From an uncultured Bacilli bacterium (GTDB lineage Bacteria > Bacillota_I > Bacilli_A > RF39 > UBA660), in contig CALVQO010000003.1 in assembly GCA_944358145.1 (NCBI GenBank), positions 1 through 35,677 of the forward strand: DNA of 35,677 nt. The letters are read 5' to 3'. Shown in pieces: positions 1-35,589 of this stretch; position 1 is the first letter of the stretch; the number at the start of each line of letters is the position of its first letter. A model generated the notes under the pieces. That model worked only from the letters and a program-made list of their open reading frames with translations, did no database searches and was not told the DNA's origin. The translations under genes and the position numbers were made by a program.

Positions 1-1235
1 TTTTTTTGTCTATCAGCATATTTTTTAGAATAATAAATCATTTGTTTTTGATAGATTAAATAGTTAACATTTCTTTTACCATCTTTTTTAATTTGTACTT
101 TTTTGGCATAAACTCTGGATTTGTGTTTAAATATAGCAGGCTTATCTTCATAACCTATGATTTTTCCTTCTTCATCTTTTATTGCCTCTTTATAGGTTAC
201 CAAATTACCGACCTCATCATATATTTCATCATAAATAAAATCATCTTGTTTTAAAGCCCATTCTTTAAATTCTTTATCGGCACCGAGTATACTTTGACCA
301 TAAACGTAACCATCATGATTGGAATGATCATCATCATTTTTCCCTGCGATAAATACAGTATTATCACTGGTATTTTGACCTCTATCTGCGACAATAATAG
401 TTCTATCAATACCAAATTTAGCTTTGGTCTTTTTTAGTGTTGGTCTCATTTGTAATTTTTCTGATTCATTCCCTGGGAACAAATCATAATACATAGGTAA
501 TCCATTTTTATCCATTAATAATCCCATTTGAACAATAGGGGGTTTCCTATGTTCTTTGCTTGGGCCTCTTTTTCTCATACCTTTTTTAACTATTTCACCT
601 TTATCATTCATTTCATCTTCATCGTTATAAGATATCTCAAAATAATAATTAGTAGTATCATAATAAGTGATCGAAGTATCACGATTATACTTATCTTTTG
701 TATTACTCCATAATGAAATAAGTAAATCGTTTTTATAAGTTGAAAAATAATCTAGTGAACGATACATATCTTGTAAAGAGAAATCAAATTTTTCAAAGAA
801 AATATCTTTATTGTTATAAGTTGATAATTTACTATTGGGATATAAAATACGAGAATAAATTAATAATTCAAAAATATCATTTAAAGAAAAATCAATTTTT
901 AGATTTTTTTGTTTTTGCTTTAAGAATTCAGGAATATTTAGTTCATTATAAATTATTTTTAAAATAACATAGCCAAGATTTTTAGTACAAGAATTTTCAT
1001 TAATAGTTTTAGTTTTTAGATTTTTAATAACTAATTCATTAGTTTCTTCGTTATTCCTTTGTTTAGCAATTTTCTTAAAATGAGAGATGGGATCATCATA
1101 TTGCTTTTTTAAATCATCTAACCATCCAATGTTTTCGATAGTTTTTTGTTTAACTTTGCCAGATTCATCACGATAGCCTTGGACAAAGGATAAGAAAGTT
1201 TTGCCACTTCTAGTTGGAGAAATTTTTAAAAACAT
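1..1235 (-). CDS. IS1634-family DDE transposase (3' end runs off the window start; absent from the ORF track)
   Basis: Manual minus-strand translation from ATG 1235: MFLKISPTRSGKTFLSFVQGYRDESGKVKQKTIENIGWLDDLKKQYDDPISHFK...KNLGY...YYDTTNYYFEI...RKRGPSKEHRKPPIVQMGLLMDKNGLPMYYDLFPGNESEK...IIVADRG. These are characteristic IS1634 motifs. An RBS (AAAGGTAGTGAT) lies upstream. Confidence 0.92.
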   Translation of the reverse strand, partial: MFLKISPTRSGKTFLSFVQGYRDESGKVKQKTIENIGWLDDLKKQYDDPISHFKKIAKQRNNEETNELVIKNLKTKTINENSCTKNLGYVILKIIYNELNIPEFLKQKQKNLKIDFSLNDIFELLIYSRILYPNSKLSTYNNKDIFFEKFDFSLQDMYRSLDYFSTYKNDLLISLWSNTKDKYNRDTSITYYDTTNYYFEISYNDEDEMNDKGEIVKKGMRKRGPSKEHRKPPIVQMGLLMDKNGLPMYYDLFPGNESEKLQMRPTLKKTKAKFGIDRTIIVADRGQNTSDNTVFIAGKNDDDHSNHDGYVYGQSILGADKEFKEWALKQDDFIYDEIYDEVGNLVTYKEAIKDEEGKIIGYEDKPAIFKHKSRVYAKKVQIKKDGKRNVNYLIYQKQMIYYSKKYADRQK

Positions 1236-12464: not shown

Positions 12465-13775
12465 ATGGAATTTGAGGTATTAAAAAGAGGACATATTAAA
12501 AGGAATATTATTATTGGAAGTTTTGCAGTACTACTGATTAGTGCAATAATACTTAATTTTACGAGAGCAAAGTATCGAACGACAGCAGAAGTACCCATAG
12601 TAAATGGTACAATAAATTATAGTTTAGCAGACTTAAATATAGTAGCAATAACAGTAGATGGAGAAAGTGTTGATACCATACCTGAAGGTAATTATGAATT
12701 AACAGAGGAAAGTTATTGTACAATAGATGGAGAACAAGACGATAGCATAAAACTTTCTTATGATATGGAAACACAAAAATTAACAGTAAGTCCATTTACA
12801 ACCAAAGGAACAAAGTGCTATTTAGACTTTATTAAAAAGGATTTTGCCAAAGAAACATTAGATAAACTAGATTTAATCGTAACTGAAGGAACTCCAAACT
12901 TTAATAACACGAGTTGTACTAATGGAAGTAATAATGGAGGTAATTGTGGAGAACAAACGGTAGGCTTATATGAAGAAACCACAAGTAAAGGAACAACCTA
13001 TTATTTTAGAGGAGATGTAAATAATAACTATTTAGTTTTTGCAAACAAATATTGGCGAATCATTCGGATTAATGAAGATGGAAGCATCAGAGTGATATAT
13101 AGTGGTGAAAAATCAACAGTAGATAGTGCTGGAAAAGAAACAGTTCTTGCTAATGGCTATAATGATGAAAGCACAGGATATACCCAAATAGGGTCAGGTC
13201 GATATAATAATAATCCTAATCAAAATGAATCTGTTGGATTTACTTATACTGAAGGATTACAACGTCCTACTAATACAAGTAGTGGAACTCCAAGTGTGAT
13301 CAAAGGAATACTAGATACATGGTATAGCAGTAATCTAGAAGCATTTGATGGAATGATTACGAGTGCCCCAGGATTTTGCAATGACAGAGAACTGGCAAGT
13401 GGATATACATGGAGTACTGGTAGTAGTATAGATTATAAATTCTCGGAAAGAGTATATTCAGCAACATTTAGTACACCAACATTAGAATGCTCTAATTCAG
13501 ATGATTTATATCAAACGAAAATCGGCTTAATTACAGCAGATGAAGTAGTTTATGCAGGAGCTGGAAAAGGTAGTAATTATGGTTATTACCTATTTACGGG
13601 AAACAGTTGCTGGACAATAACACCATTGGGTGAAGGATCCGTGACTACTTTTTCAAAATATTTTGGAGACTTTCAAGTAACATTTACCTTTGGCGTACGT
13701 CCTGTTATTAATATCTCATCAAATATAACAATAACCGGTTCAGGAACAATACAAGATCCTTATGTTGTAAATTAA
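12465..13775 (+). CDS. Secreted/surface protein with DUF6273-like C-terminal domain
   Basis: N-terminal TM ending TRAKY; YYFRG..NNY..WRIIRINEDGSIRVIY, IGLITADEV, WTITP, GVRPVINI and GSGT..DPY motifs; AAGGAG RBS. Confidence 0.65.
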   Translation: MEFEVLKRGHIKRNIIIGSFAVLLISAIILNFTRAKYRTTAEVPIVNGTINYSLADLNIVAITVDGESVDTIPEGNYELTEESYCTIDGEQDDSIKLSYDMETQKLTVSPFTTKGTKCYLDFIKKDFAKETLDKLDLIVTEGTPNFNNTSCTNGSNNGGNCGEQTVGLYEETTSKGTTYYFRGDVNNNYLVFANKYWRIIRINEDGSIRVIYSGEKSTVDSAGKETVLANGYNDESTGYTQIGSGRYNNNPNQNESVGFTYTEGLQRPTNTSSGTPSVIKGILDTWYSSNLEAFDGMITSAPGFCNDRELASGYTWSTGSSIDYKFSERVYSATFSTPTLECSNSDDLYQTKIGLITADEVVYAGAGKGSNYGYYLFTGNSCWTITPLGEGSVTTFSKYFGDFQVTFTFGVRPVINISSNITITGSGTIQDPYVVN

Positions 13776-21021: not shown

Positions 21022-21049
21022 TTGACAATTAATCAATAGATGATATACT
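21022..21049 (+). promoter_or_regulatory. Sigma-A promoter of the PLP enzyme-dapF-GNAT-murE operon
   Basis: TTGACA (21022-21027), 16-nt spacer, TGaTATACT; only about 30 nt to the ATG; AGGAGG RBS. Confidence 0.7.
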
Positions 21050-21081
21050 AAAACTAGATAATTGTTTGTTTAGGAGGTTAT

Positions 21082-22260
21082 ATGAAAAATTTTACAAACT
21101 ATAAAGAATATGATAAGAAGGAGAACTTAAAAATTGGTTCAAAAGTAGTTCATGGTGCAGTAGGACATGATCCTTTTACTGGTTCAGTTAGTTTTCCAAT
21201 ATTTCAAACAGCAACTTTTAGATTTAGAGCCTTAGAAGATTCATTTGGTTATGATTATACAAGACTTCAAAATCCAACAGTTGAAGAACTAGAACGTACT
21301 CTAGCCATGCTTGAAAATGGTACTCATGCTCTAGCTCTATCTAGTGGTATGGCCGCTGTAATGTGTGCATTTTCACTGTTAAAAAGAGGTGATCATTTAA
21401 TATCAAGTGATGATATCTACGGAGGAACTTATGAAATTGCTAAAACAGAATTAAAAGAAAGAGGAGTAGAAACAAGCTTTGTTGATTTAAGTGATTTTGA
21501 ATTATTTAAGGAAAGTATCAAAGAGAATACAAAGATGATTTTTATTGAAAGTCCAACAAATCCCACGATGAAAGTAGCAGATATCGCGGAAATTTGCAAA
21601 ATTGCGAAAGAAAAAGGAATTATTGTTGTCGTAGATAATACACTACTTACACCATATTATCAAAAGCCACTTAATTTAGGTGCTGATATTGTCATTCATA
21701 GTGGAACAAAATATTTAGAAGGACACAATGATACCATGGCTGGTTTTGTCATAACCAATAAAGAAGAATACTTTACTCCAATGCGTGCCTTTTTAACTTA
21801 TCAAGGAGCATGTTTAGCCCCATTAAATGCTTGGTTAACCCTAAGAGGAATTAAAACATTAGAAGTACGTATGCAAAGACACAATGAAAATGCTCTAAAA
21901 GTAGCAGAGTTCTTACAAAACCATCCAAAGGTTACCAAAGTATATTATACCGGTCTAAAAGATCATAAAGATTATGCAACAACGATGAAGCAATCAACCG
22001 GTTTTGGTGGATTATTATCTTTTGAAGTAGACACAAAAGAAACAGCACTAAAAGTATTAGAAAAAGTAAACATGATTATTTTTGCTGGTTCTCTAGGTGG
22101 TGTGGAAAGCTTAATTTGTTATCCAGTTGTTGTAACCCATCATGAAGTACCAGAAGAAGAAAGATTAAAATTAGGAATTAATGATCGTTTACTTAGATTA
22201 TCTGTTGGTATTGAAGATGCCGAAGATATTATTAATGATTTAGCCCAAGCATTAGAATAG
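21082..22260 (+). CDS. Cys/Met-metabolism PLP enzyme (cystathionine gamma-synthase/lyase family)
   Basis: PIFQTATF, YDYTRLQNPT, SSGMAA, ESPTNP, VDNT, HSGTKYLEGH (PLP lysine), SLGGVESL and RLSVGIED motifs. Confidence 0.93.
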   Translation: MKNFTNYKEYDKKENLKIGSKVVHGAVGHDPFTGSVSFPIFQTATFRFRALEDSFGYDYTRLQNPTVEELERTLAMLENGTHALALSSGMAAVMCAFSLLKRGDHLISSDDIYGGTYEIAKTELKERGVETSFVDLSDFELFKESIKENTKMIFIESPTNPTMKVADIAEICKIAKEKGIIVVVDNTLLTPYYQKPLNLGADIVIHSGTKYLEGHNDTMAGFVITNKEEYFTPMRAFLTYQGACLAPLNAWLTLRGIKTLEVRMQRHNENALKVAEFLQNHPKVTKVYYTGLKDHKDYATTMKQSTGFGGLLSFEVDTKETALKVLEKVNMIIFAGSLGGVESLICYPVVVTHHEVPEEERLKLGINDRLLRLSVGIEDAEDIINDLAQALE

Positions 22261-22270
22261 GAGAGATTTT

Positions 22271-23128
22271 ATGAGATTTACAAAAATGCAAGCATACGGA
22301 AATGACTATGTATACATTGATGCCATAAATCAAAAGTTAGATAATTTAAATGAACTAGCTAAATTTGTATCTAATCGTCATTTTGGTATTGGTAGTGATG
22401 GTATGGTACTAATTTGTCCTAGTGATGTAGCAGATTTTAAAATGCGTATTTTTAATCCTGATGGAACGGAAGCTGAAATGTGTGGAAATGCAATTCGTAG
22501 TGTCGGAAAATATGTATATGATCATAAATTAACCGATAAAACAACATTAAAAATTGAAACTTTAGGTGGAATTAAAACGCTTGATTTAACAGTAGAAAAT
22601 GGTGTAGTAACTAATATTCGTGCCAATATTTCTAAACCAATTTTTGATGCTAAATTAGTACCAGTTAACACAGATAAAGAAAAATTTATTATGGAAAGTG
22701 TTAAAATATTAGATCAAACATTTAAATTAAGTAGTCTTTCATGGGGAAACCCTCACACAGTTTTATTTGTAGATGATGTCATGAATTTCGATGTTGCAAA
22801 ATATGGCCCAGCCATTGAAAATAATAGAGAAGTATTTCCAAACAGAACCAATGTAACCTTTGCTGAAGTAGTAAACAAAAACTACATTAAAATAAGAGAA
22901 TGGGAAAGAGGTACTGGTGAGACTATTGGTTGTGGAACTGGATGTTCTACTGCCGTAGTAATAGCATCTACCCTAGGACTTACCGATAGAAAGTGTGAAG
23001 TTGAACAAATTGGTGGTATTTTAGAAATAGAATATGCAGATAATGGTGAATTATACATGAAGGGTCCAAGTCATTTTGTATTTGAAAGTGAAATTGATGT
23101 TTCTCATATAATAGAAAAAACAAAATGA
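22271..23128 (+). CDS. dapF: Diaminopimelate epimerase family protein
   Basis: GNDY, FNPDGTEAEMCGNAIR, GNPH, TNV and WERGTGETIGCGTG; both catalytic cysteines present. Confidence 0.93.
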   Translation: MRFTKMQAYGNDYVYIDAINQKLDNLNELAKFVSNRHFGIGSDGMVLICPSDVADFKMRIFNPDGTEAEMCGNAIRSVGKYVYDHKLTDKTTLKIETLGGIKTLDLTVENGVVTNIRANISKPIFDAKLVPVNTDKEKFIMESVKILDQTFKLSSLSWGNPHTVLFVDDVMNFDVAKYGPAIENNREVFPNRTNVTFAEVVNKNYIKIREWERGTGETIGCGTGCSTAVVIASTLGLTDRKCEVEQIGGILEIEYADNGELYMKGPSHFVFESEIDVSHIIEKTK

Positions 23129-24067
23129 ATTTTATCACTTTAACAAAAGAAAATTTTAATCAATATGCTAATCAAATTGTTGATTTATGTAACGAAGCAG
23201 TTAAATTTAATGAAAACAATGATAAAAAAGGACAATTTTATACAACAACATTTAAAGAACTATTAGAAGAACAAATAAGAAAGAATGAATTTCAGGAAAA
23301 TAATCCAATTAGAAGATATATAACTGATCGTTTATATGAAGAATACAAAAAAATAGGAAAAGTAGAAGATTATACCAAAACAGCGTTTTATGCTCTAGCT
23401 GATATTAACAAAGAAAAGCTAATAAGACTAGCAAGAGACAAAAATCAAGATAAAGACTTAACGGAAAAGATAAAGATTTATGAACTATTTTTACAAGCCC
23501 AAAGTCCAGTTTTTATTTCTTTACCAACAATAAACATCGAAAAATATTTTGAATCTAATATAGATAATGCCATGGAAATAAATACTTACATTGTAAATCC
23601 AACTTATCGTGGTAATGGTCTAGCCAAAATATTACTATATGAAACATTAAAAAGGAAGATGGAAGATTATTTTTTACATACTGACAATGATATTTTATAT
23701 TTAAATACAACTATCCACAATGATAACATTAATTCTCAAAAAATTATTAGTATAATTAAAATGGAAGATTATTTATATATTGAACGAACTAAAGGAATTA
23801 ATAGAAGAGTATATTTTAAAAAAGTATGTAGAGATAATTATCAAGATTTATTACACGAAATGGAAATAGAGTTTAATAGACTACAATTATTATTCCCACA
23901 TATTTGGTATAGATTTAGAACAATTAAGAGAAATAATCAAATTAAAAATAAATGAGTACAATAATGGGTTACAAACTGCTAGAAGCATACAAGAAAAAGA
24001 AACTAAAGAAGCAAAATTAAATAGTTTATTAAAAACTGAATTATTAATAAGAAAAAGGAGTAAATAA
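23125..24067 (+). CDS. GNAT-family acetyltransferase, probably with a +1 frameshift near 23872 (as sequenced it stops at 23955)
   Basis: Motif A IVNPTYRGNGLAK and motif B TIHNDNINSQK; ATGA overlap with dapF. The +1 frame LIDYNYYSHIFG...LIRKRSK* runs to 24067, 3 nt before murE. Confidence 0.65.
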
Positions 24068-24070
24068 AAA

Positions 24071-25534
24071 ATGAAAAAATTAAAAGATATTTTAGAAGGA
24101 ATCAATTATTATGTATTAAAAGGAACTATTGATTTAGAAATTAATGATATTAAGTATGATAGCAGAAAAGTTAAAAATCAAGATATATATGTAGCTTTAA
24201 TAGGATATAACAGTGATGGTCATGACTATATTATAGATGCCATAAAAAATGGTGCTAAAGTAATCATAACTTCTAAAATGATAAATGTTGAAGAAGAAGT
24301 AACAGTAATAAAAGTAGATGATACGAGATTAGCTCTAGCTTATTTATCAGCTAATTATTTTGATCATCCAGCATCAAAACTAACGGTTATTGGTGTTACA
24401 GGCACAACAGGTAAAACAACAACGACCCATATGATTAGAGAGATGTTATTAAAAGTAGGAATAAATTGTGGATTAATTGGAAGCATCGGGGTAAAGTATG
24501 AAGATAAAATTATACACACAGACAATACTACACCTGAATCATATGAAGTACATAAATTTTTTAAAGAAATGTTAGATCATGGTATTACTCATGTTGTCAT
24601 GGAAGCATCAAGTCAAGCCTTTAAACTTAATCGTCTAGCTGGCATAATTTTTGATATTGGTGTACTTACTAATGTTACAACCGATCATATAGGACCGGGA
24701 GAACATGAATCACATGAAGAGTATGTAGCATGTAAAAATAAATTATTTTTAAACAGTAAATTAGTAATTAGCAATAGTGATTCTCTTTATTTAAAAGAAG
24801 TATTAAAAGGGGTAGAAGTACCAATAATAACTTATGGCGTAAAAAATGAAGCAGATTTAAAAGTTACTAACATCAATTTAATTAATGAAGCTAATTTTTT
24901 AGGTTCAGAGTTTATTACAGAAGGTTTAATTAATGATACATTTAAAACTTGTATTCCTGGAGAATTTAATGTCTACAATTCCTTATGTTCGCTATTAGTT
25001 TGTGAAGAGTTAGGAATAGATATCAAGAAATCTAAAGAAGCTCTACAAACACTAAAAGTTAGAGGACGTATGGAAATAGCACTAGTAACCCCAAAATATA
25101 AAGTATTAATTGATTATGCTCATACTGAAGATGGCATGAAAGGGCTAGTTAAAACTTTACGTGCTTACAAGCCTAAAAGATTAGTAAGTGTATTTGGTGG
25201 TGGAGGAAATCGTCCAAAAGAAAGAAGATATAGTCTTGGTGAAATTATAGGAGGAGCTAGTGATTTTTGTATTATTACCGAAGATAATCCAAGATTTGAA
25301 GAGTTAAGTAGTATTAATGAAGATATTAAAGTAGGATTAGATAAAGTAGGAGCTAAATATATTGAAATTCCTGATCGTGCTGATGCCATTAAATATGCTT
25401 GTGATAATGCTTTAGAAGGAGATTTAATTCTTTTAGTTGGTAAAGGTCATGAAGAATATCAAGATATAAAAGGTGTAAAACACTATTTTAGTGAACTTGA
25501 TGTAATTAATGAAATAAAAAAAGATTTAAAATAA
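24071..25534 (+). CDS. murE: UDP-MurNAc-L-Ala-D-Glu:diamino acid ligase, DAP-type
   Basis: YDSRKV, GTTGKTTT, TTPE, MEASS, DYAHT, DNPR and GKGHE motifs. Confidence 0.95.
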   Translation: MKKLKDILEGINYYVLKGTIDLEINDIKYDSRKVKNQDIYVALIGYNSDGHDYIIDAIKNGAKVIITSKMINVEEEVTVIKVDDTRLALAYLSANYFDHPASKLTVIGVTGTTGKTTTTHMIREMLLKVGINCGLIGSIGVKYEDKIIHTDNTTPESYEVHKFFKEMLDHGITHVVMEASSQAFKLNRLAGIIFDIGVLTNVTTDHIGPGEHESHEEYVACKNKLFLNSKLVISNSDSLYLKEVLKGVEVPIITYGVKNEADLKVTNINLINEANFLGSEFITEGLINDTFKTCIPGEFNVYNSLCSLLVCEELGIDIKKSKEALQTLKVRGRMEIALVTPKYKVLIDYAHTEDGMKGLVKTLRAYKPKRLVSVFGGGGNRPKERRYSLGEIIGGASDFCIITEDNPRFEELSSINEDIKVGLDKVGAKYIEIPDRADAIKYACDNALEGDLILLVGKGHEEYQDIKGVKHYFSELDVINEIKKDLK

Positions 25535-29491: not shown

Positions 29492-30361
29492 ATGAGAGTT
29501 TTAAAATATTTAGTATTTGCTAATGTTATTTGTTTTGTAGCTCTTTGTAGTGCAAATGCAGCATCATGTACATATAAATATAATAATTATACTTATGAAT
29601 GTAATGTTACAACAAACTCATTAAGTTGTGATTTTCTATATAATAATAATTTAAGTAAAGATGCCATTAATACAAGTAATTTAAACATGACATTAAGTGA
29701 AGATGATTTTATTAATAGTGATGGTGAAGTAGACTGTAATGAGGTTAGAAATTTATACTTTGATCAAAATATAAATAATCGTTCTATTCAAATAATTTAT
29801 GATATTAGAAGTGATAATAATAATTGTCCAATTCATACACAAAGATATAATGCAAGACCTGGAGATTTTCTTACAGAAACAAATGGATGTGTAACTTATT
29901 CATTAAGCAATTCTTCTAATGATGATAGCAATGGAAATACATCTGATGAAGATGGAGGATTTAATCCTGGATCAGGGACAGGTACAGGATCTGGTAATAC
30001 AGGTGATGGTGAATTTAACACTGAAAATTTTTGCAGTGGATCAGTTCAAGGAGTATTTACAACTATAGGTTGGGTATTTTTCATTGCTAAAATTTTAATA
30101 CCTATAGTATTAATTATATTTGGAAGTATAGATTTTGGAAGAGCAATAATAGCAAATAAAGACGATGAAATTAAGAAATCTGCTAAATCATTAGTTATGC
30201 GTGCTGTAGCAGGAGTAATTATTTTCTTCATTCCAACTCTATTAAATTTTGTTGTTGAAATTATCGGTGGAGATGATTTATATAATGGCACATTTGCCAC
30301 TTGTACTCACTGTATGTTAGAACCAACAGATTCTAGTTGTAGAAAGTTAATAGGTGATTAA
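29492..30361 (+). CDS. Secreted Cys-rich domain fused to a C-terminal VirB2/TrbC-like pilin hairpin
   Basis: Signal peptide (SANA), G/S/T/D linker, then IPIVLIIFGSIDFGRAII-KDDEIKK-RAVAGVIIFFIP; GGAGGAG RBS. Confidence 0.7.
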   Translation: MRVLKYLVFANVICFVALCSANAASCTYKYNNYTYECNVTTNSLSCDFLYNNNLSKDAINTSNLNMTLSEDDFINSDGEVDCNEVRNLYFDQNINNRSIQIIYDIRSDNNNCPIHTQRYNARPGDFLTETNGCVTYSLSNSSNDDSNGNTSDEDGGFNPGSGTGTGSGNTGDGEFNTENFCSGSVQGVFTTIGWVFFIAKILIPIVLIIFGSIDFGRAIIANKDDEIKKSAKSLVMRAVAGVIIFFIPTLLNFVVEIIGGDDLYNGTFATCTHCMLEPTDSSCRKLIGD

Positions 30362-30362
30362 G

Positions 30363-31568
30363 ATGAAAAAATATATAATTTTAGCAATATTATTATTCAG
30401 TTTTAATTTAACAAATGTACATGCTACACCTATAGAAGATGAATGTATAGAAAATGGAACTTGTGAAGTTTTATGTAATTATGAAACAATTGTAAGTAAT
30501 GGCAAAAATAATGGCCAATGGAGACGAAATTTAACTATTTATTATGCTTTTGACGAAGGCTTATATATTAAATATCAGTCACCTACTGGTCAAGAAGTAC
30601 GAGAATATTCTAAAGGACCATATCCATCATTTAGTTATACACTCTCTAATGCCGGAGGATTTAACGTTTATTGGGGAATAGACTATACACCAGAGATAAG
30701 TAATTTTTCATGTCCAACAAATGGCTATATCGATACAAATGGCTTTAATGGTGGAAATGAAATTTGCTTTGACAATGATGGTGTAACTTGTAAAGAGGAA
30801 TACAGTAATTTTGCAACTTCATTTGGATTTGATCATAATTTTATTTCACAAAAAAAAGATTATGATTTTGAAGAACAAATAGCGAATTACAAAAACTGGA
30901 TATTTGGCGATATAAAAGAAGATATTTCAAACGGTACATTTAAAAATGAAGAAGAAATATATGATAAGATAGTAAAAGACTTCCAAGAAAATTTTTTGAG
31001 TGGCAATACATTACCAGCTTTCATGGCTAATTCTAAAGCCTTCCAAGATATATATAATAGTATCATAGAAGAATTTGAAGAAACAAAGCAAGAAGCTTTA
31101 GATGACGCAAAACAAGATGTCGCTGATGGAAATAAAACTCAAGAAGAATATGATGAAATAGCTAATAATTGGGAAAATTTAGATAGTGAAAAGTTAGAAG
31201 AAGAAGCCCAAAAAGCACTTGATACTATTCAACGAGAAAGTATTGAAAGTACATTAGAGTGGGAAGCTGACACTTGCAGCAGTTTTTTAGGCGATAAAAA
31301 TGATAGTAACGATCCGGCTTACTATTTGAATTTTATATTCAATTTATTGAAATATATTGCTATAGTTATATTATTTGTATTTTCTATAATAGAATTTGGA
31401 AAAGCCGTTATCTCAAATGATAATGATGCTTTAAAAAAAGCTGTACAAAAAACAATAAAAAGATTAGTAATATGTATTGTAATATTTTTCTTGCCTCAAT
31501 TAATTAATTTTATTATGGAACTTTTAGGAGTAATAGAAGATCCAACTTGTGGAATAGGGGTGAGATAA
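30363..31568 (+). CDS. Second secreted-domain / VirB2-like pilin hairpin fusion
   Basis: Signal peptide (NVHA), Cys-rich and acidic helical regions, then IIEFGKAVIS-DALKKA-KRLVICIVIFFLP; AGGTGAT RBS. Confidence 0.7.
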   Translation: MKKYIILAILLFSFNLTNVHATPIEDECIENGTCEVLCNYETIVSNGKNNGQWRRNLTIYYAFDEGLYIKYQSPTGQEVREYSKGPYPSFSYTLSNAGGFNVYWGIDYTPEISNFSCPTNGYIDTNGFNGGNEICFDNDGVTCKEEYSNFATSFGFDHNFISQKKDYDFEEQIANYKNWIFGDIKEDISNGTFKNEEEIYDKIVKDFQENFLSGNTLPAFMANSKAFQDIYNSIIEEFEETKQEALDDAKQDVADGNKTQEEYDEIANNWENLDSEKLEEEAQKALDTIQRESIESTLEWEADTCSSFLGDKNDSNDPAYYLNFIFNLLKYIAIVILFVFSIIEFGKAVISNDNDALKKAVQKTIKRLVICIVIFFLPQLINFIMELLGVIEDPTCGIGVR

Positions 31569-31569
31569 T

Positions 31570-33720
31570 ATGTTTGAAGAAATCTTAAATGTTATTCAAA
31601 CGGGAATATTTTGGCTTTTGTTAAAAATTGATGGTATTGTTTACACTTTTATCGACTGGGTATATCAAATAATTTTGTTATTAGCTAATGGAAACATACT
31701 AACTAATAGGGAATTTTTAAATGAATTGATAAACAGAATGTATATCGTAGTTGGAGTTATAGTTTTATTTTTAGTAGCTTATTCATTAATTAGAAGTATG
31801 GTTAATCCTGATGATGCATTAAAAGGAAAGGAATCACCAGCTAAAGTTATTCAAAATGTTATTATATCTGTTGTACTAATAGCTATTACACCTTATGTAT
31901 TTGACTTTGCAATGCGCTTTCAAACAGCTTTATTACAACAAAACACAATTGGAAAAATAATTTTAGGCGAGGGAAGTGGAGACATATCTTCAGAAGAGAC
32001 AATTAATGAAGGTGGCTTTACAATTGCTATAGATGTTTTTCAAGCTTTTTTTCAACCAAACACCAGAATAGGTTATTGTACTGGAATTGAGTCAATAGAT
32101 GCAAACTATCCAGACTGTAAACCTTTAAATAATGTTACAATAGGAACTTATACTAGCTACTATGATTGGTGGGATACAGAAGTTATCCAAAATAAAAACT
32201 TGTTTGCAATTGCTCAAGCATCTCATTTAGTAGCAGATGAAAGCATATCATACACATTTTTAATTTCTACAGCAGCTGGAGTCTTTGTATTGTATGTATT
32301 GGCATTATATTGTATTGAAATAGCAATAAGATTAGTAAAGCTGGCATTTTACCAACTAATTGCACCACTCCCAATTTTAACTAGAATAGTGCCAAAAGAT
32401 GATGTAAAAAAAATGTTTGATAATTGGATAAAAGCAACATTATCAACCTACCTTGAAGTATTTGTAAGACTAGGAATATTATTTTTTGCAATTTTTATAA
32501 TCAGGCTTATAATAGACAATTTTATGAGCATATTTAATGTTTTAGGAGAAAATTGGGGTAATGTAAATCCTGTCTTAGTTTTAATTGCTCAAGTGTTAGT
32601 TATTGTTGGAATCTTCCTATTTGTAAAACAGGCTCCTCAAATTATTAAAGATATTACAGGTCTTGATGGTGGAAAATATGGCAAAGCATTAATCAAAGGT
32701 GCTGGAATGATAGCTGCTTCTATTGGTGGAGGAACAACAGCAACAATAAGAAGTTTTGTTAGTGATAAAGATAAACCTTTACCTCAAAGACTCGGCCGAG
32801 CATTTACAGCAGGATTAAGTGGAACTACAAAAGGATTACATCAAGGAAGCAAAATTGATAAATTTGGTGATATGCCAAAAGCCGCGGGAACAGCATCCTC
32901 TAACGCTCTTAGTGGAAGAGCAAGAAGAGAAGCTGCAGGTGGTTGGAAAGGTTATTTTGGAGCTCAAAAAGATACATTATTATCAAAGGGAAAAAATTGG
33001 CTAAATGTTGATAATAATGATCGAGTACAAGAATTTGCTGGGAATTTAGATAAAGATATTAGCCAATCTCAAGGAGTATATAAAAAGAGTCAAGACTATA
33101 TTGATGCCAAAGCATTACAAACTAAGCTAAAAAATAGTATTAAAGATTATGACCAAGCATGGAATAATATTTTACTAGAAGCACAAAATGATGAAAGAAC
33201 AAAAGACCCAACGAAGGAAGGATATATTTCTGCGGAAGAGTTAGCTCAACAAAACTTTATTCAACGCTTTGGAAAATCAATAGATGCAATGCATATTGAG
33301 TTAAATGCTGCTAATAATACTGTTGAAGGAATTAAAATCAATGAATCAAGGAAAAAAGCAACCTCTGTTGCTGCTGGAGCAAGAGATTTTGTCTTCCAGC
33401 TCCAACGTTTTTCTGATTTGAAATTTGACGTTCAAGATGCAATAAAAATAAAATTGCAAAAGGATCCAAATGAAGCTCAACGACTAATTAATGCATATAA
33501 TAATTACAGCAAATTTAATGATGATCCTGAAAAATTATATGAACAAATAACATTAGACTTACAAAGTAAAGATGATACTATGGTAAAGAAAGCATTAGAT
33601 TATATAGATGCTTTAGACATGGCTAAGAACTATGCATTAGACTTGCAAAGTACTGCTGCTTTCAAAGAAACAGTATTTAAAGCAAAAGTTAAAGATACTT
33701 CTGGAGATAAAAAGAAATAA
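31570..33720 (+). CDS. VirB6/TrbL-like polytopic membrane protein (Mbov_0396-like)
   Basis: Multiple TMs; AIRLVKLAFYQLIAPLPI..FDNWIK..YLEVFVRL; FVKQAP..I motif followed by a Gly/Ala-rich stretch and a helical tail. Confidence 0.7.
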   Translation: MFEEILNVIQTGIFWLLLKIDGIVYTFIDWVYQIILLLANGNILTNREFLNELINRMYIVVGVIVLFLVAYSLIRSMVNPDDALKGKESPAKVIQNVIISVVLIAITPYVFDFAMRFQTALLQQNTIGKIILGEGSGDISSEETINEGGFTIAIDVFQAFFQPNTRIGYCTGIESIDANYPDCKPLNNVTIGTYTSYYDWWDTEVIQNKNLFAIAQASHLVADESISYTFLISTAAGVFVLYVLALYCIEIAIRLVKLAFYQLIAPLPILTRIVPKDDVKKMFDNWIKATLSTYLEVFVRLGILFFAIFIIRLIIDNFMSIFNVLGENWGNVNPVLVLIAQVLVIVGIFLFVKQAPQIIKDITGLDGGKYGKALIKGAGMIAASIGGGTTATIRSFVSDKDKPLPQRLGRAFTAGLSGTTKGLHQGSKIDKFGDMPKAAGTASSNALSGRARREAAGGWKGYFGAQKDTLLSKGKNWLNVDNNDRVQEFAGNLDKDISQSQGVYKKSQDYIDAKALQTKLKNSIKDYDQAWNNILLEAQNDERTKDPTKEGYISAEELAQQNFIQRFGKSIDAMHIELNAANNTVEGIKINESRKKATSVAAGARDFVFQLQRFSDLKFDVQDAIKIKLQKDPNEAQRLINAYNNYSKFNDDPEKLYEQITLDLQSKDDTMVKKALDYIDALDMAKNYALDLQSTAAFKETVFKAKVKDTSGDKKK

Positions 33721-34403
33721 TGTTCGGATTTAATGAAGCAAAAAAATCAGTTAATAATTGGACTAAAAACATTAAAGAAAAATACGAAAAAGAACTAACA
33801 ATAATTGATAAAATTATAGAATTAATAAATCAAATATTAAATATTTGGAAAAGTGATTTAGGATATAGAAAATATAATCAAAAAATTTTAATGTTCAAAT
33901 ATCAGTATTTTAACTTTCCTAGCTTTGATTTATTTTATAAAAATTATCTTGAAATAATTAGATCAGAAACTTTAGTAAAGCTTAACAAAAAAGGATATAA
34001 TGATTTTAGCGCCAAATTAGGGATTATAAAGTTTTTATTGAAACAATATAACTATCCAATAACAGAAATAAAAGATTTAAAAGAATTTTTAAACTGTTTA
34101 CAAAAATATCAATTTTTAATTGAACAAAGGGAAAAATATAAAAATAGTTTAATTCTGGAAAATTATTCTTTGATTTACTACAATTGTCTTTCAATAAGCT
34201 CATATCAAAAAAAATATTCGGAACTTTATAAAATTATTGGGAGATATGAAGATATTGATATTATATTAGGACCATATGGTGAGAAGATAAAAAGCGAAGA
34301 TCCTATATCTTTTACATTTATAAGTAGTCTAGAAACACTTTTGATTAATTTGGAAAATGAAAAAGCAATAATCGAACTATCTTATCATTCTAAAAATCGT
34401 TAA
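33720..34403 (+). CDS. Hypothetical protein, possibly truncated
   Basis: TAATG coupling to the upstream gene; no recognisable motif. Confidence 0.5.
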   Translation: MFGFNEAKKSVNNWTKNIKEKYEKELTIIDKIIELINQILNIWKSDLGYRKYNQKILMFKYQYFNFPSFDLFYKNYLEIIRSETLVKLNKKGYNDFSAKLGIIKFLLKQYNYPITEIKDLKEFLNCLQKYQFLIEQREKYKNSLILENYSLIYYNCLSISSYQKKYSELYKIIGRYEDIDIILGPYGEKIKSEDPISFTFISSLETLLINLENEKAIIELSYHSKNR

Positions 34404-34752: not shown

Positions 34753-35589
34753 ATGAGAGGAGGTGCGAATATAAAAACAGAAACATTTGTTAACCTAACT
34801 AATGACATTCTATTTAAATATGTCTTTAGTCATGAAGAATTGACGTTTGATTTATTAAAATCTTTCTTTAATTATATAGGTATTCCTAAAGAAATAGAAA
34901 GTATACAAGTATTCAAAGATTATTCGATATATGGAACTAACATGGAAGATAAAGTTTTTTATAGTGATATTGTTGCTATATTAGAAGATACGGAATATAT
35001 ATCCATAGAAATGTACACATATTTTAGTAAAGAAGAATATATGAAAAGTGCATCTTATTTATCTAGATTATTTGCTAATCAGTTAAAAAGAGGTGATCTT
35101 TATACAAAAGCCAAAAAAGTGTACAGTATCAACTTTATGACGGGAAATTATTCAGAAGAAAATAAAGACATAGTAAATGATTATGGTTTCATTAGAAAAA
35201 TTGAAACGCCTAGCAAAGACAATGAATTCATTATCATGTACCTGATAAGACTTGATAAAGTCAGCAAAATAGTATACAATAAGAATGAATCAAGATTAGT
35301 AAGGTGGTTAAGACTAATGAAATCAGAAAGTATAGAAGAAATGGAAAGTATAGCGAAAGGAGATAAAACAATGGAACAAGCAATAGAATACGTAGATGCC
35401 TTCTTAAAAGAAGAAGGAACAACATTTCAAGATAAGATAGAGTATGAAAAAGCCAAGTCAGAAGCAAAAGGCCGTGAAGATGACAAAAAAGAAACGGCTA
35501 AGAATATGCTAAATAAAAGTTACTCTATTTCTGAGATAATGGATATCACTGGTTTAAGTCAAACAGAAATTGAAGCATTAAAAAAATAG
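34753..35589 (+). CDS. Rpn-family (PD-(D/E)XK) recombination-promoting nuclease / putative transposase
   Basis: NDILFKYVF, SDI......ISIEM, QLKRGDLY..KKVYSINF, WLRL and C-terminal AKNML..I..ITGLS..EI motifs. Confidence 0.88.
   Translation: MRGGANIKTETFVNLTNDILFKYVFSHEELTFDLLKSFFNYIGIPKEIESIQVFKDYSIYGTNMEDKVFYSDIVAILEDTEYISIEMYTYFSKEEYMKSASYLSRLFANQLKRGDLYTKAKKVYSINFMTGNYSEENKDIVNDYGFIRKIETPSKDNEFIIMYLIRLDKVSKIVYNKNESRLVRWLRLMKSESIEEMESIAKGDKTMEQAIEYVDAFLKEEGTTFQDKIEYEKAKSEAKGREDDKKETAKNMLNKSYSISEIMDITGLSQTEIEALKK
35252..35280 (+). promoter_or_regulatory. Intragenic sigma-A promoter within rpn
   Basis: TTGATA (35252-35257), 17-nt spacer, TACAAT (35275-35280). Confidence 0.5.
35371..35589 (+). 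CDS. Putative nested small protein (RpnS-like, 72 aa)
   Basis: AAAGGAGA at 35356-35363, 7 nt before in-frame ATG 35371. Confidence 0.55.
   Translation: MEQAIEYVDAFLKEEGTTFQDKIEYEKAKSEAKGREDDKKETAKNMLNKSYSISEIMDITGLSQTEIEALKK

Follow-up and report, generated by a model that had tools for sequence, protein, structure and literature searches.

Fusobacterium nucleatum has a lanthionine-containing wall whose synthase is CysK1/FN1220 and, according to the accessible part of PMC11602996, its meso-lanthionine may come directly from L- and D-cysteine, its predicted DapF (FN1732) is a histidine racemase that barely turns lanthionine over, and clustering or fusion of the genes involved goes without mention there. 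In Escherichia coli, crude lysate epimerised L,L- to D,L-lanthionine, an activity absent from lysate of a dapF deletion, and the deletion strain also put D,L-lanthionine into its wall in place of diaminopimelic acid (DAP) (Richaud 1993, as related in PMC12039745). Here we describe a gene set comparable to both in a 35,677-nt stretch of DNA (the window), which is contig C3 of a 1.196-Mb, 116-contig assembly (78% complete) from a genus of reduced, RF39-like Bacilli with genomes of 0.8–1.5 Mb. The window is AT-rich (GC content 0.23–0.33), near-identical DNA occurs in chicken-gut metagenome runs from several studies, and it encodes, in close succession, a pyridoxal phosphate (PLP) enzyme, a DapF-type epimerase and a MurE ligase. 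We find that these three genes form a conserved unit, which we call the cassette, that is shared with gut Clostridia, and we somewhat favour the reading that it would make and use a thioether analogue of DAP. The features of the locus are as follows:

21022..21049, + strand: promoter-like site, TTGACA, 16 nt, TATACT, with TG before the −10; a consensus match only, at 11 of 12 positions
21082..22260, + strand: fold-type-I PLP enzyme of the Cys/Met-metabolism family (PF01053, cassette-specific clade), 392 aa; proposed thioether (lanthionine) synthase
22271..23128, + strand: DapF-type cofactor-independent epimerase (TIGR00652), 285 aa, cassette subfamily
23125..24067, + strand: GNAT-like open reading frame (ORF), frameshifted near codon 250; as read 23125–23955, with the remainder in another frame to 24067
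24071..25534, + strand: MurE, UDP-MurNAc-L-Ala-D-Glu:meso-diamino-diacid ligase of the DAP type (NF001126), 487 aa

The four coding regions lie head to tail on the plus strand with the promoter-like site in front, and the preliminary description, which read them as one promoter followed by four tightly spaced genes, gave the spacings exactly: a 10-nt gap between the PLP and DapF genes, an ATGA overlap between DapF and the GNAT-like ORF, and 3 nt to MurE if the GNAT-like frame is repaired (stop at 24065–24067). Its promoter is present as a strong promoter-like site that ranks first of 25 between 20700 and 25700, a region in which shuffled sequences average 30.6 sites, so that the count itself is not above the shuffles; the same scan found no terminator-like site there. 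The fourth gene did not hold up as part of the unit, with the GNAT-like ORF occurring in none of 20 loci from the genus, and the conserved unit is PLP–DapF–MurE.

These three genes are contiguous in 19 of the 20 loci from other species of the genus, and the linkage that the preliminary description had singled out for checking extends beyond it. Scanning the PLP protein against one genome per species returned 80 loci, 25 of which carry a cassette-type PLP enzyme at 54–97% identity, 24 with the full trio and one on a contig that ends after DapF; in the other 55, where the PLP enzyme is 38–48% identical, neither DapF nor MurE is nearby. Fifteen of the 25 cassette loci bear Clostridia labels (Faecalimonas, Mediterraneibacter, other Lachnospiraceae, Acutalibacteraceae and ‘Clostridium’). 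The gene set is not peculiar to Bacilli, since the same trio occurs in these 15 gut Clostridia metagenome-assembled genomes (MAGs). Within the order (200 genomes, 98 genera), a cassette PLP enzyme was found in all four sampled members of the genus in addition to the window's genome, and in none of the 196 others. A second query, the more distant DapF P0171, which shares part of the cassette signature described below, returned 80 metagenome loci with the trio in 62; clustered at 90% DapF identity, these loci show the trio in 12 of the 17 clusters with enough flanking sequence, a further 8 clusters being cut by contig ends. The genes flanking the cassette vary between carriers. In two Clostridia MAGs, DapF and MurE are merged without a seam into a single ORF, of 777 aa (L051 7254–9587) and 786 aa (L057 7204–9564), and another DapF–MurE fusion, P0147 (776 aa), was the top match in a search of 1.84 billion cluster representatives; the three fusions come from Clostridia MAGs of different sources.

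We scored 400 drawn Clostridia genomes, including the carrier G058 on which the draw was centred, and found the cassette in none of the 399 besides that one, indicating that it is rare in Clostridia. We had considered PLP identity of at least 54% as a marker for the cassette and rejected it, as neither DapF nor MurE lies within 1.5 kb of 11 Clostridia enzymes at 52–57% identity; going by the trees described below, the marker is the PLP clade rather than identity. Seven of these 11 enzymes adjoin a second PF01053 paralogue (L139, L141–L143 and L145–L147; 41–45% identical to the query), in tandems like metI–metC pairs. In the five Clostridia carriers searched, DapB was found in all five, two MurE proteins over cut-off in all five and two DapF proteins in four, and one carrier (G059) has a separate dapB–dapF–murE–murF cluster. 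The cassette thus runs beside a normal DAP gene set in Clostridia, whereas in the genus it is the only DapF/MurE set. We found no plasmid match at 60% identity. A 56-kb human-faeces scaffold labelled ‘UNVERIFIED: Bacteriophage sp.’ (L155, MT835498.1 38172–51347; GC content 0.43) carries the full trio at 57%, 65% and 47% identity; it is probably bacterial DNA in a virome set, although the cassette may be carried on a mobile element there.

The PLP enzyme is a member of PF01053 (488.6 bits against a cut-off of 27), and so not a fold-type-II PALP (PF00291) enzyme like the Fusobacterium-type lanthionine synthase. It attains the cut-off of no NCBIfam equivalog: the best-scoring ones, MccB (NF005810, 448.6 vs 594), MetC (NF005976, 429.5 vs 627) and MetI (NF004821, 427.7 vs 642), all fall below theirs, as does methionine gamma-lyase (TIGR01328, 387.6 vs 549.7). 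Methionine gamma-lyase has an active-site Cys in a Y-G-C-T motif; the motif reads YGGT in all 42 cassette enzymes. K210, Y113, D185 and R372 are invariant in the 42 cassette and 55 outgroup sequences, and from structures of cystathionine gamma-lyase (CGL) and cystathionine gamma-synthase (CGS) we take them to be, respectively, the Schiff-base lysine, the PLP-stacking tyrosine of YGGT, the aspartate to the pyridine nitrogen and the arginine for the alpha-carboxylate. The best solved relative is 7d7o (402 bits), an MccB-type cystathionine gamma-lyase/homocysteine desulfhydrase. In the tree, the 42 cassette enzymes form a clade (SH-aLRT 99) that is sister to MetI/MetC/MccB-like enzymes and holds when the 11 Clostridia enzymes at 52–57% identity are added. 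The clade has an N-terminal extension with an invariant Tyr7, further positions that are invariant or nearly so (S37, L189, N216, A220, L245, Y298 and F334, each in at least 39 of 42), and (R/V/Q)-T-H-(T/H/E)-E in place of the MTHAS segment of the family. Of 24 genus genomes, 22 keep the enzyme, and those lacking a strong match are 79% and 53% complete. Its genomic context makes it a candidate lanthionine synthase.

DapF scores 264.3 bits on TIGR00652 (cut-off 114.65), compared with 20.3 against a cut-off of 400 for the histidine racemase HisR (NF052224) and 103.9 against 350 for the Chlamydia-type bifunctional DapF/glutamate racemase (NF038284). The claim that it keeps both catalytic cysteines is borne out: the CGN and CGTG motifs, together with GND, GNPH and ERG, align with the solved chains 2otn, 5ha4 and 9mro, and the alignment to solved DapFs also retains the residues that hold both ends of the diamino-diacid. 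A clade with SH-aLRT 99 unites the cassette DapFs to the exclusion of the housekeeping DapFs of the Clostridia carriers. Its members have, beside the active-site motifs, a signature of A8, P63, W158 (before GNPH), T196, E210, C225 (in CGTGC) and Q246. Among the 150 nearest cluster representatives, W158 occurs in five, C225 in nine and E210 in one, and the nine-position pattern made of these seven positions plus G44 and T215 occurs in a single one, namely the fused protein. Residue 44, the Gln44 position, is Gly in all 41 cassette copies. Gly-type DapFs (Anabaena, Arabidopsis) epimerise lanthionine as fast as DAP, whereas the Gln44 enzyme of Haemophilus influenzae works on lanthionine at only ~20% of the rate that it shows on DAP (both from PMC12039745). 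On this reading of its residues, the cassette DapF is compatible with lanthionine rather than marked for it. DapF is single copy in 37 of 41 genus genomes and in 20 of the 21 high-quality ones; the protein called DapF2 (Alr2 family) in PMC13759103 is unrelated.

MurE exceeds the cut-off of the DAP-ligase equivalog NF001126 (479.6 bits vs 373), with DNPR at residues 405–408, as had been noted before, and GKGHE at 457–461; DNPR is present in all 41 cassette and five housekeeping MurEs. The genus MurEs are a single clade (SH-aLRT 100), joined to the cassette MurEs of Clostridia with supports of 91 and 87, in a tree that leaves the split between cassette and housekeeping MurEs without resolution; the genus DapFs are likewise a single clade (97), which falls among the cassette copies of Clostridia. 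Both placements suggest that the genus acquired the cassette. The PLP enzymes of the genus, instead, fall into three groups intermixed with Clostridia ones, and that of the window, together with six others, is sister to a Clostridia trio at 76–77% identity (support 100). This mixing indicates that the PLP gene has been exchanged in place, with at least three lineages at the same locus.

In four members of the genus (G006, G014, G024 and G015), a second MurE paralogue lies ~1.4 kb downstream (L029 5695–7218, L030 10737–12257, L031 839–2356 and L032 6692–8203). Where the cassette MurEs read DNPR and GKGHE, it reads EDPG and GKGNE, and it is of the non-DAP type (TIGR01085, 293.7 bits), so that two kinds of stem peptide may exist in one cell. 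A 403-aa ORF whose sole match, a weak one, is ATP-grasp-like lies ahead of it in G014 (L136 656–3390).

The gene content of the genus bears on what the cassette might do. As the preliminary description stated, the window has no other dap, lys or met family among the 28 ORFs scanned against Pfam, nine of which are familyless at the thresholds used. The wider absence that it expected was also seen: neither the window's genome nor any of five genus genomes that are 93–99% complete has a DapA, DapB or LysA over cut-off, and two of those five have a sub-threshold LysA-like decarboxylase. Asd and LuxS were found in none of 41 genus genomes, and SahH in none of the five near-complete ones. The absence of Asd, DapA and DapB leaves no way to aspartate semialdehyde or tetrahydrodipicolinate and removes a de novo source of DAP, and the absence of LuxS, SahH and Asd means that neither homocysteine nor O-acylhomoserine would be made, which removes the usual Met-cycle or transsulfuration role of a PF01053 enzyme. 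Transpeptidase domains of penicillin-binding proteins (PBPs) are nevertheless present in all five genomes, with 5–7 matches each, so the genus builds a cross-linked wall. Salvage of peptides through Mpl was considered and rejected, as no Mpl over cut-off was found in any of the five.

We propose that PLP–DapF–MurE is a self-contained, horizontally exchanged module that would supply position 3 of the peptidoglycan stem with a thioether analogue of DAP. The PF01053 enzyme would first join two imported three-carbon amino acids, most likely in a beta-replacement that converts two L-Cys to L,L-lanthionine and H2S, with L-Cys plus L-Ser or an activated Ser also possible; the cassette DapF would then epimerise one centre to give meso-lanthionine, and the DNPR-type MurE would ligate this product to UDP-MurNAc-L-Ala-D-Glu. 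The module would stand in for the absent DAP pathway in the genus and operate in parallel to ordinary DAP genes in gut Clostridia. Substrates, product and wall incorporation are here proposed from protein families, motifs, linkage, phylogeny, fusion and gene absences, and on these grounds we regard the general scheme, in which the PLP enzyme makes an L,L-thioether diamino acid of any kind that DapF epimerises and MurE ligates, as probable by a modest measure. Lanthionine as the specific product is a more tentative proposal that we would place somewhat below an even chance; it is favoured over cystathionine because it is isosteric with DAP, has a precedent in F. nucleatum, and would need none of the homocysteine or homoserine esters that the genus lacks. 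The chemistry in the preliminary description, lanthionine or cystathionine with release of H2S, accordingly keeps its conditional form, these sequences being compatible with either product.

Several observations weigh against this proposal. The window's genome, among those in which the DAP genes were not found, is only 78% complete. In G004, a genome 95% complete, the PLP gene is followed directly by MurE and DapF is nowhere in the genome, and among the metagenome clusters obtained with P0171, three of the 17 have DapF–MurE without the PLP gene and two have PLP–DapF without MurE. Every carrier is an uncultured MAG from human or animal gut. Two specificity positions of the PLP enzyme, N/D at position 58 and E/G at position 336, resemble those of CGS/CGL, and its sequence is compatible with both beta- and gamma-chemistry. 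MurE is nearly devoid of cassette-specific change, differing at one position from five housekeeping copies with the same DNPR and GKGHE, and Gly44 of DapF is also found in three of three housekeeping DapFs. As indicators of the product we tried the PLP specificity pair, the MurE pocket and Gly44 of DapF, and none discriminated. Bearing on the source of cysteine, only 23 of the 41 genus genomes have a fold-type-II PALP gene, and neither G018 nor the window's genome yielded one; the same count led us to reject a fold-type-II synthase as a universal source. Finally, DapF occurs without DapB in nine genomes from six other genera of the order, in unrelated contexts and with no cassette PLP enzyme. 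G004 (L021/L135, G004:C4) is also without MurI anywhere and has Ku after MurE.

The occurrence of DapF without DapB leads to the strongest competing explanation, in which the genus takes up free LL- or meso-DAP present in the gut, DapF and MurE handle DAP itself, and the PLP enzyme is a catabolic or H2S-producing Cys or Met desulfhydrase or lyase that is linked to them only by descent. DapB was found in only one of 201 genomes of the order, and the DapFs of the six other genera (L149–L154; from G646, G654, G586, G580, G534 and G642) score 283–323 bits, so that a DapF in a DAP-less genome need not imply this PLP enzyme and could act on scavenged DAP. A MurE of the standard DAP type with one clade-specific site fits this explanation equally, as does a closest solved PLP relative that is a cystathionine gamma-lyase/homocysteine desulfhydrase. 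What salvage leaves unexplained is the presence of a second DapF and MurE tied to the PLP clade in DAP-equipped Clostridia, and the persistence of the trio across two classes in shifting contexts; nor does it account for a PLP gene swapped in place among at least three lineages when the genus copies of DapF and of MurE are each monophyletic. Most environmental DAP is the meso form, and on that footing an epimerase would be superfluous to a cell that imports it. We consider salvage unlikely, if the most serious of the alternatives to a thioether product.

A variant within the thioether proposal, and counted as part of it, is that the product is L-cystathionine, one atom longer than DAP, formed by gamma-replacement on Met with Cys as nucleophile or from scavenged homocysteine. 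The sister clade of MetI/MetC/MccB-like enzymes, being cystathionine enzymes, speaks for this variant, as does N/D at PLP position 58, which we take to correspond to D45 of E. coli CGS, and cystathionine can reportedly replace DAP in E. coli, as the title of Mengin-Lecreulx 1994 has it. Against it stand the missing Asd, LuxS and SahH, which would leave the genus with no O-acylhomoserine or homocysteine, the isostery of lanthionine with DAP and its natural precedent in F. nucleatum, and a DNPR-type MurE and a DapF that are essentially unchanged. We see cystathionine as a distinctly minor prospect, ranking below salvage.

It is quite improbable that the PLP enzyme is instead an amino-acid racemase, supplying D-Ala, D-Glu or D-Cys in place of missing racemases, in an operon that groups D-amino-acid functions of the wall. 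The idea draws on the scarcity of the standard enzymes, with canonical Alr over cut-off in only four and MurI in 21 of the 41 genus genomes, and on the existence of PF01053 members with racemase activity, an NCBIfam model for an archaeal Ala/Glu racemase matching at 315 bits. Against its cut-off of 629 that match falls far short, and it is 24th in rank; most genus genomes (31 of 41) have a match to a divergent Alr-fold protein of 340 aa; an ordinary alanine racemase occurs in Clostridia carriers, as seen next to one of the cassettes; and the dedicated second DapF and MurE would be left unexplained. The divergent Alr-fold copy of the window's genome scores 35.8 bits on PF01168, and the loci concerned in this genome are G000:C10:3246–4265 (L133 447–1466) and G000:C75:3388–4059. 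Weakest of all, and hardly to be expected, is a PLP enzyme that acts on a DAP-pathway intermediate (such as a DapL-like aminotransferase leading to LL-DAP) or makes another, non-sulfur diamino-diacid: the PLP–DapF–MurE order mirrors the logic of DapL–DapF–MurE, PF01053 enzymes have weak aminotransferase-family matches and carbon–carbon bond-forming gamma-replacement enzymes exist in the superfamily, yet without Asd, DapA and DapB there would be no tetrahydrodipicolinate or O-acylhomoserine substrate for an enzyme that the genus so consistently keeps.

If the thioether proposal is right, the cassette would be the counterpart of several known systems with differences from each. Like F. nucleatum as described in PMC11602996, the genus lacks the DAP pathway, its PLP enzyme would turn cysteine into a DAP-isosteric thioether with release of H2S, and a DAP-type MurE would incorporate it. 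The F. nucleatum synthase, however, is a fold-type-II, CysK-like enzyme whereas that of the cassette is fold-type-I PF01053, and in place of a histidine racemase the cassette has a bona fide DapF (TIGR00652) in an operon whose genes are clustered and in some cases fused. The E. coli lanthionine strains share with our proposal a DapF-dependent epimerisation of L,L-lanthionine, after which the meso thioether replaces DAP; they are a laboratory result obtained with promiscuous housekeeping enzymes, whereas here there would be a natural, transferable operon with its own DapF and MurE paralogues. In the E. coli lanthionine and cystathionine strains, a MetB/MetC-family enzyme is said to have supplied the thioether. 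MetI (CGS), MetC (cystathionine beta-lyase) and MccB (CGL/homocysteine desulfhydrase) have the same fold and PLP residues, with Clostridia members 52–57% identical, often in tandem and in the sister clade. The cassette enzyme, which scores 428–449 bits on their models compared with 500–530 for the sister clade, all under cut-off, differs from them in adjoining DapF–MurE rather than met or cys genes. Housekeeping dapB–dapF–murE–murF clusters, such as that of G059, also place a DapF beside a DNPR-type MurE, but their DapFs form a separate clade without the cassette signature and are accompanied by DapB instead of a PF01053 enzyme. Thioether walls as such are already a known idea; new here would be the fold of the enzyme, an epimerase dedicated to the task, the arrangement as an operon with gene fusion, the distribution across gut Firmicutes and, in a reduced genome, the substitution for the DAP pathway. 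In a full-text literature search, whose coverage excludes most subscription journals and supplements, no title or abstract described a PF01053–DapF–MurE operon or lanthionine walls outside Fusobacterium.

The GNAT-like ORF between DapF and MurE is a frameshifted, lineage-specific insertion outside the conserved cassette. Its match to PF00583 is marginal (21.7 bits vs a cut-off of 20.7) and that to PF17013 is under cut-off (26.5 vs 35). The nearest relative, P0121 (314 aa), is identical at 246 of 250 residues (98%) up to the point where the frame of the window changes; the remaining P0121-like part is read in another frame and ends at the stop 3 nt before the MurE ATG. Other GNAT-like relatives are 408–420 aa long (about 417), with one exception of 351 aa, and distant copies (35–37%) occur in two of 40 genus genomes, both at other loci. 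Two contigs from two other studies, one of 7.3 kb across the entire locus and one of 2.5 kb across 22716–25231, each have substitutions only and no indel, indicating that insertion and frameshift are real in the population rather than an assembly error. The ORF has a GC content of 0.24, compared with 0.27–0.32 in its flanks.

Contigs from two RNA libraries map on the PLP gene, the PLP/DapF junction and MurE, which is a weak hint, short of proof, of transcription or of a single transcript; parts of the queried stretch without such contigs are uninformative. Control by a riboswitch was rejected, since a scan of 11 loci found no Rfam family beside the cassette, the sole match being a distant glycine riboswitch in L048. 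Upstream of the cassette, the window encodes ThyA, DHFR and Tmk, and downstream of it a PTAC-family protein, Dus, a DUF1016 protein and a MurC-like ligase. Further along, at 29492–34403, four successive plus-strand ORFs (289, 404, 716 and 227 aa) match no Pfam family at E 1e-5 and are followed by a PD-(D/E)XK transposase-like gene at 34753–35589; ORFs at 3–1235 (minus strand, 411 aa, open at the window edge) and 12465–13775 (plus strand, 436 aa) are likewise without a Pfam family at this threshold.

Taken together, we think it a serious possibility, though one just short of probable, that some gut Firmicutes naturally build walls with meso-lanthionine or another thioether by means of a mobile three-gene operon, which would pair a lanthionine synthase of fold type I with the first epimerase dedicated to lanthionine, in some cases joined to MurE in one protein, and that the genus, having obtained the operon from Clostridia, now relies on it instead of the aspartate-to-DAP pathway. 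Lanthionine-type walls would then be not a peculiarity of Fusobacterium but a transferable trait of common gut Firmicutes, built with another enzyme fold. The cassette would also supply the lanthionine epimerase that is still missing in F. nucleatum, where the predicted DapF is a histidine racemase according to PMC11602996. Genomes with the cassette, now read as DAP-type organisms with an orphan ‘cystathionine lyase’, would have their annotation corrected, and the gut would have an added cysteine-dependent source of H2S and added stem peptides that NOD1 may sense, meso-lanthionine being reported to activate NOD1 in the title of Uehara 2006. For the genus itself, the shortcut of two enzymes would let a genome of 1.0–1.5 Mb drop the aspartate-to-DAP pathway while keeping a DAP-type wall cross-linked by PBPs.

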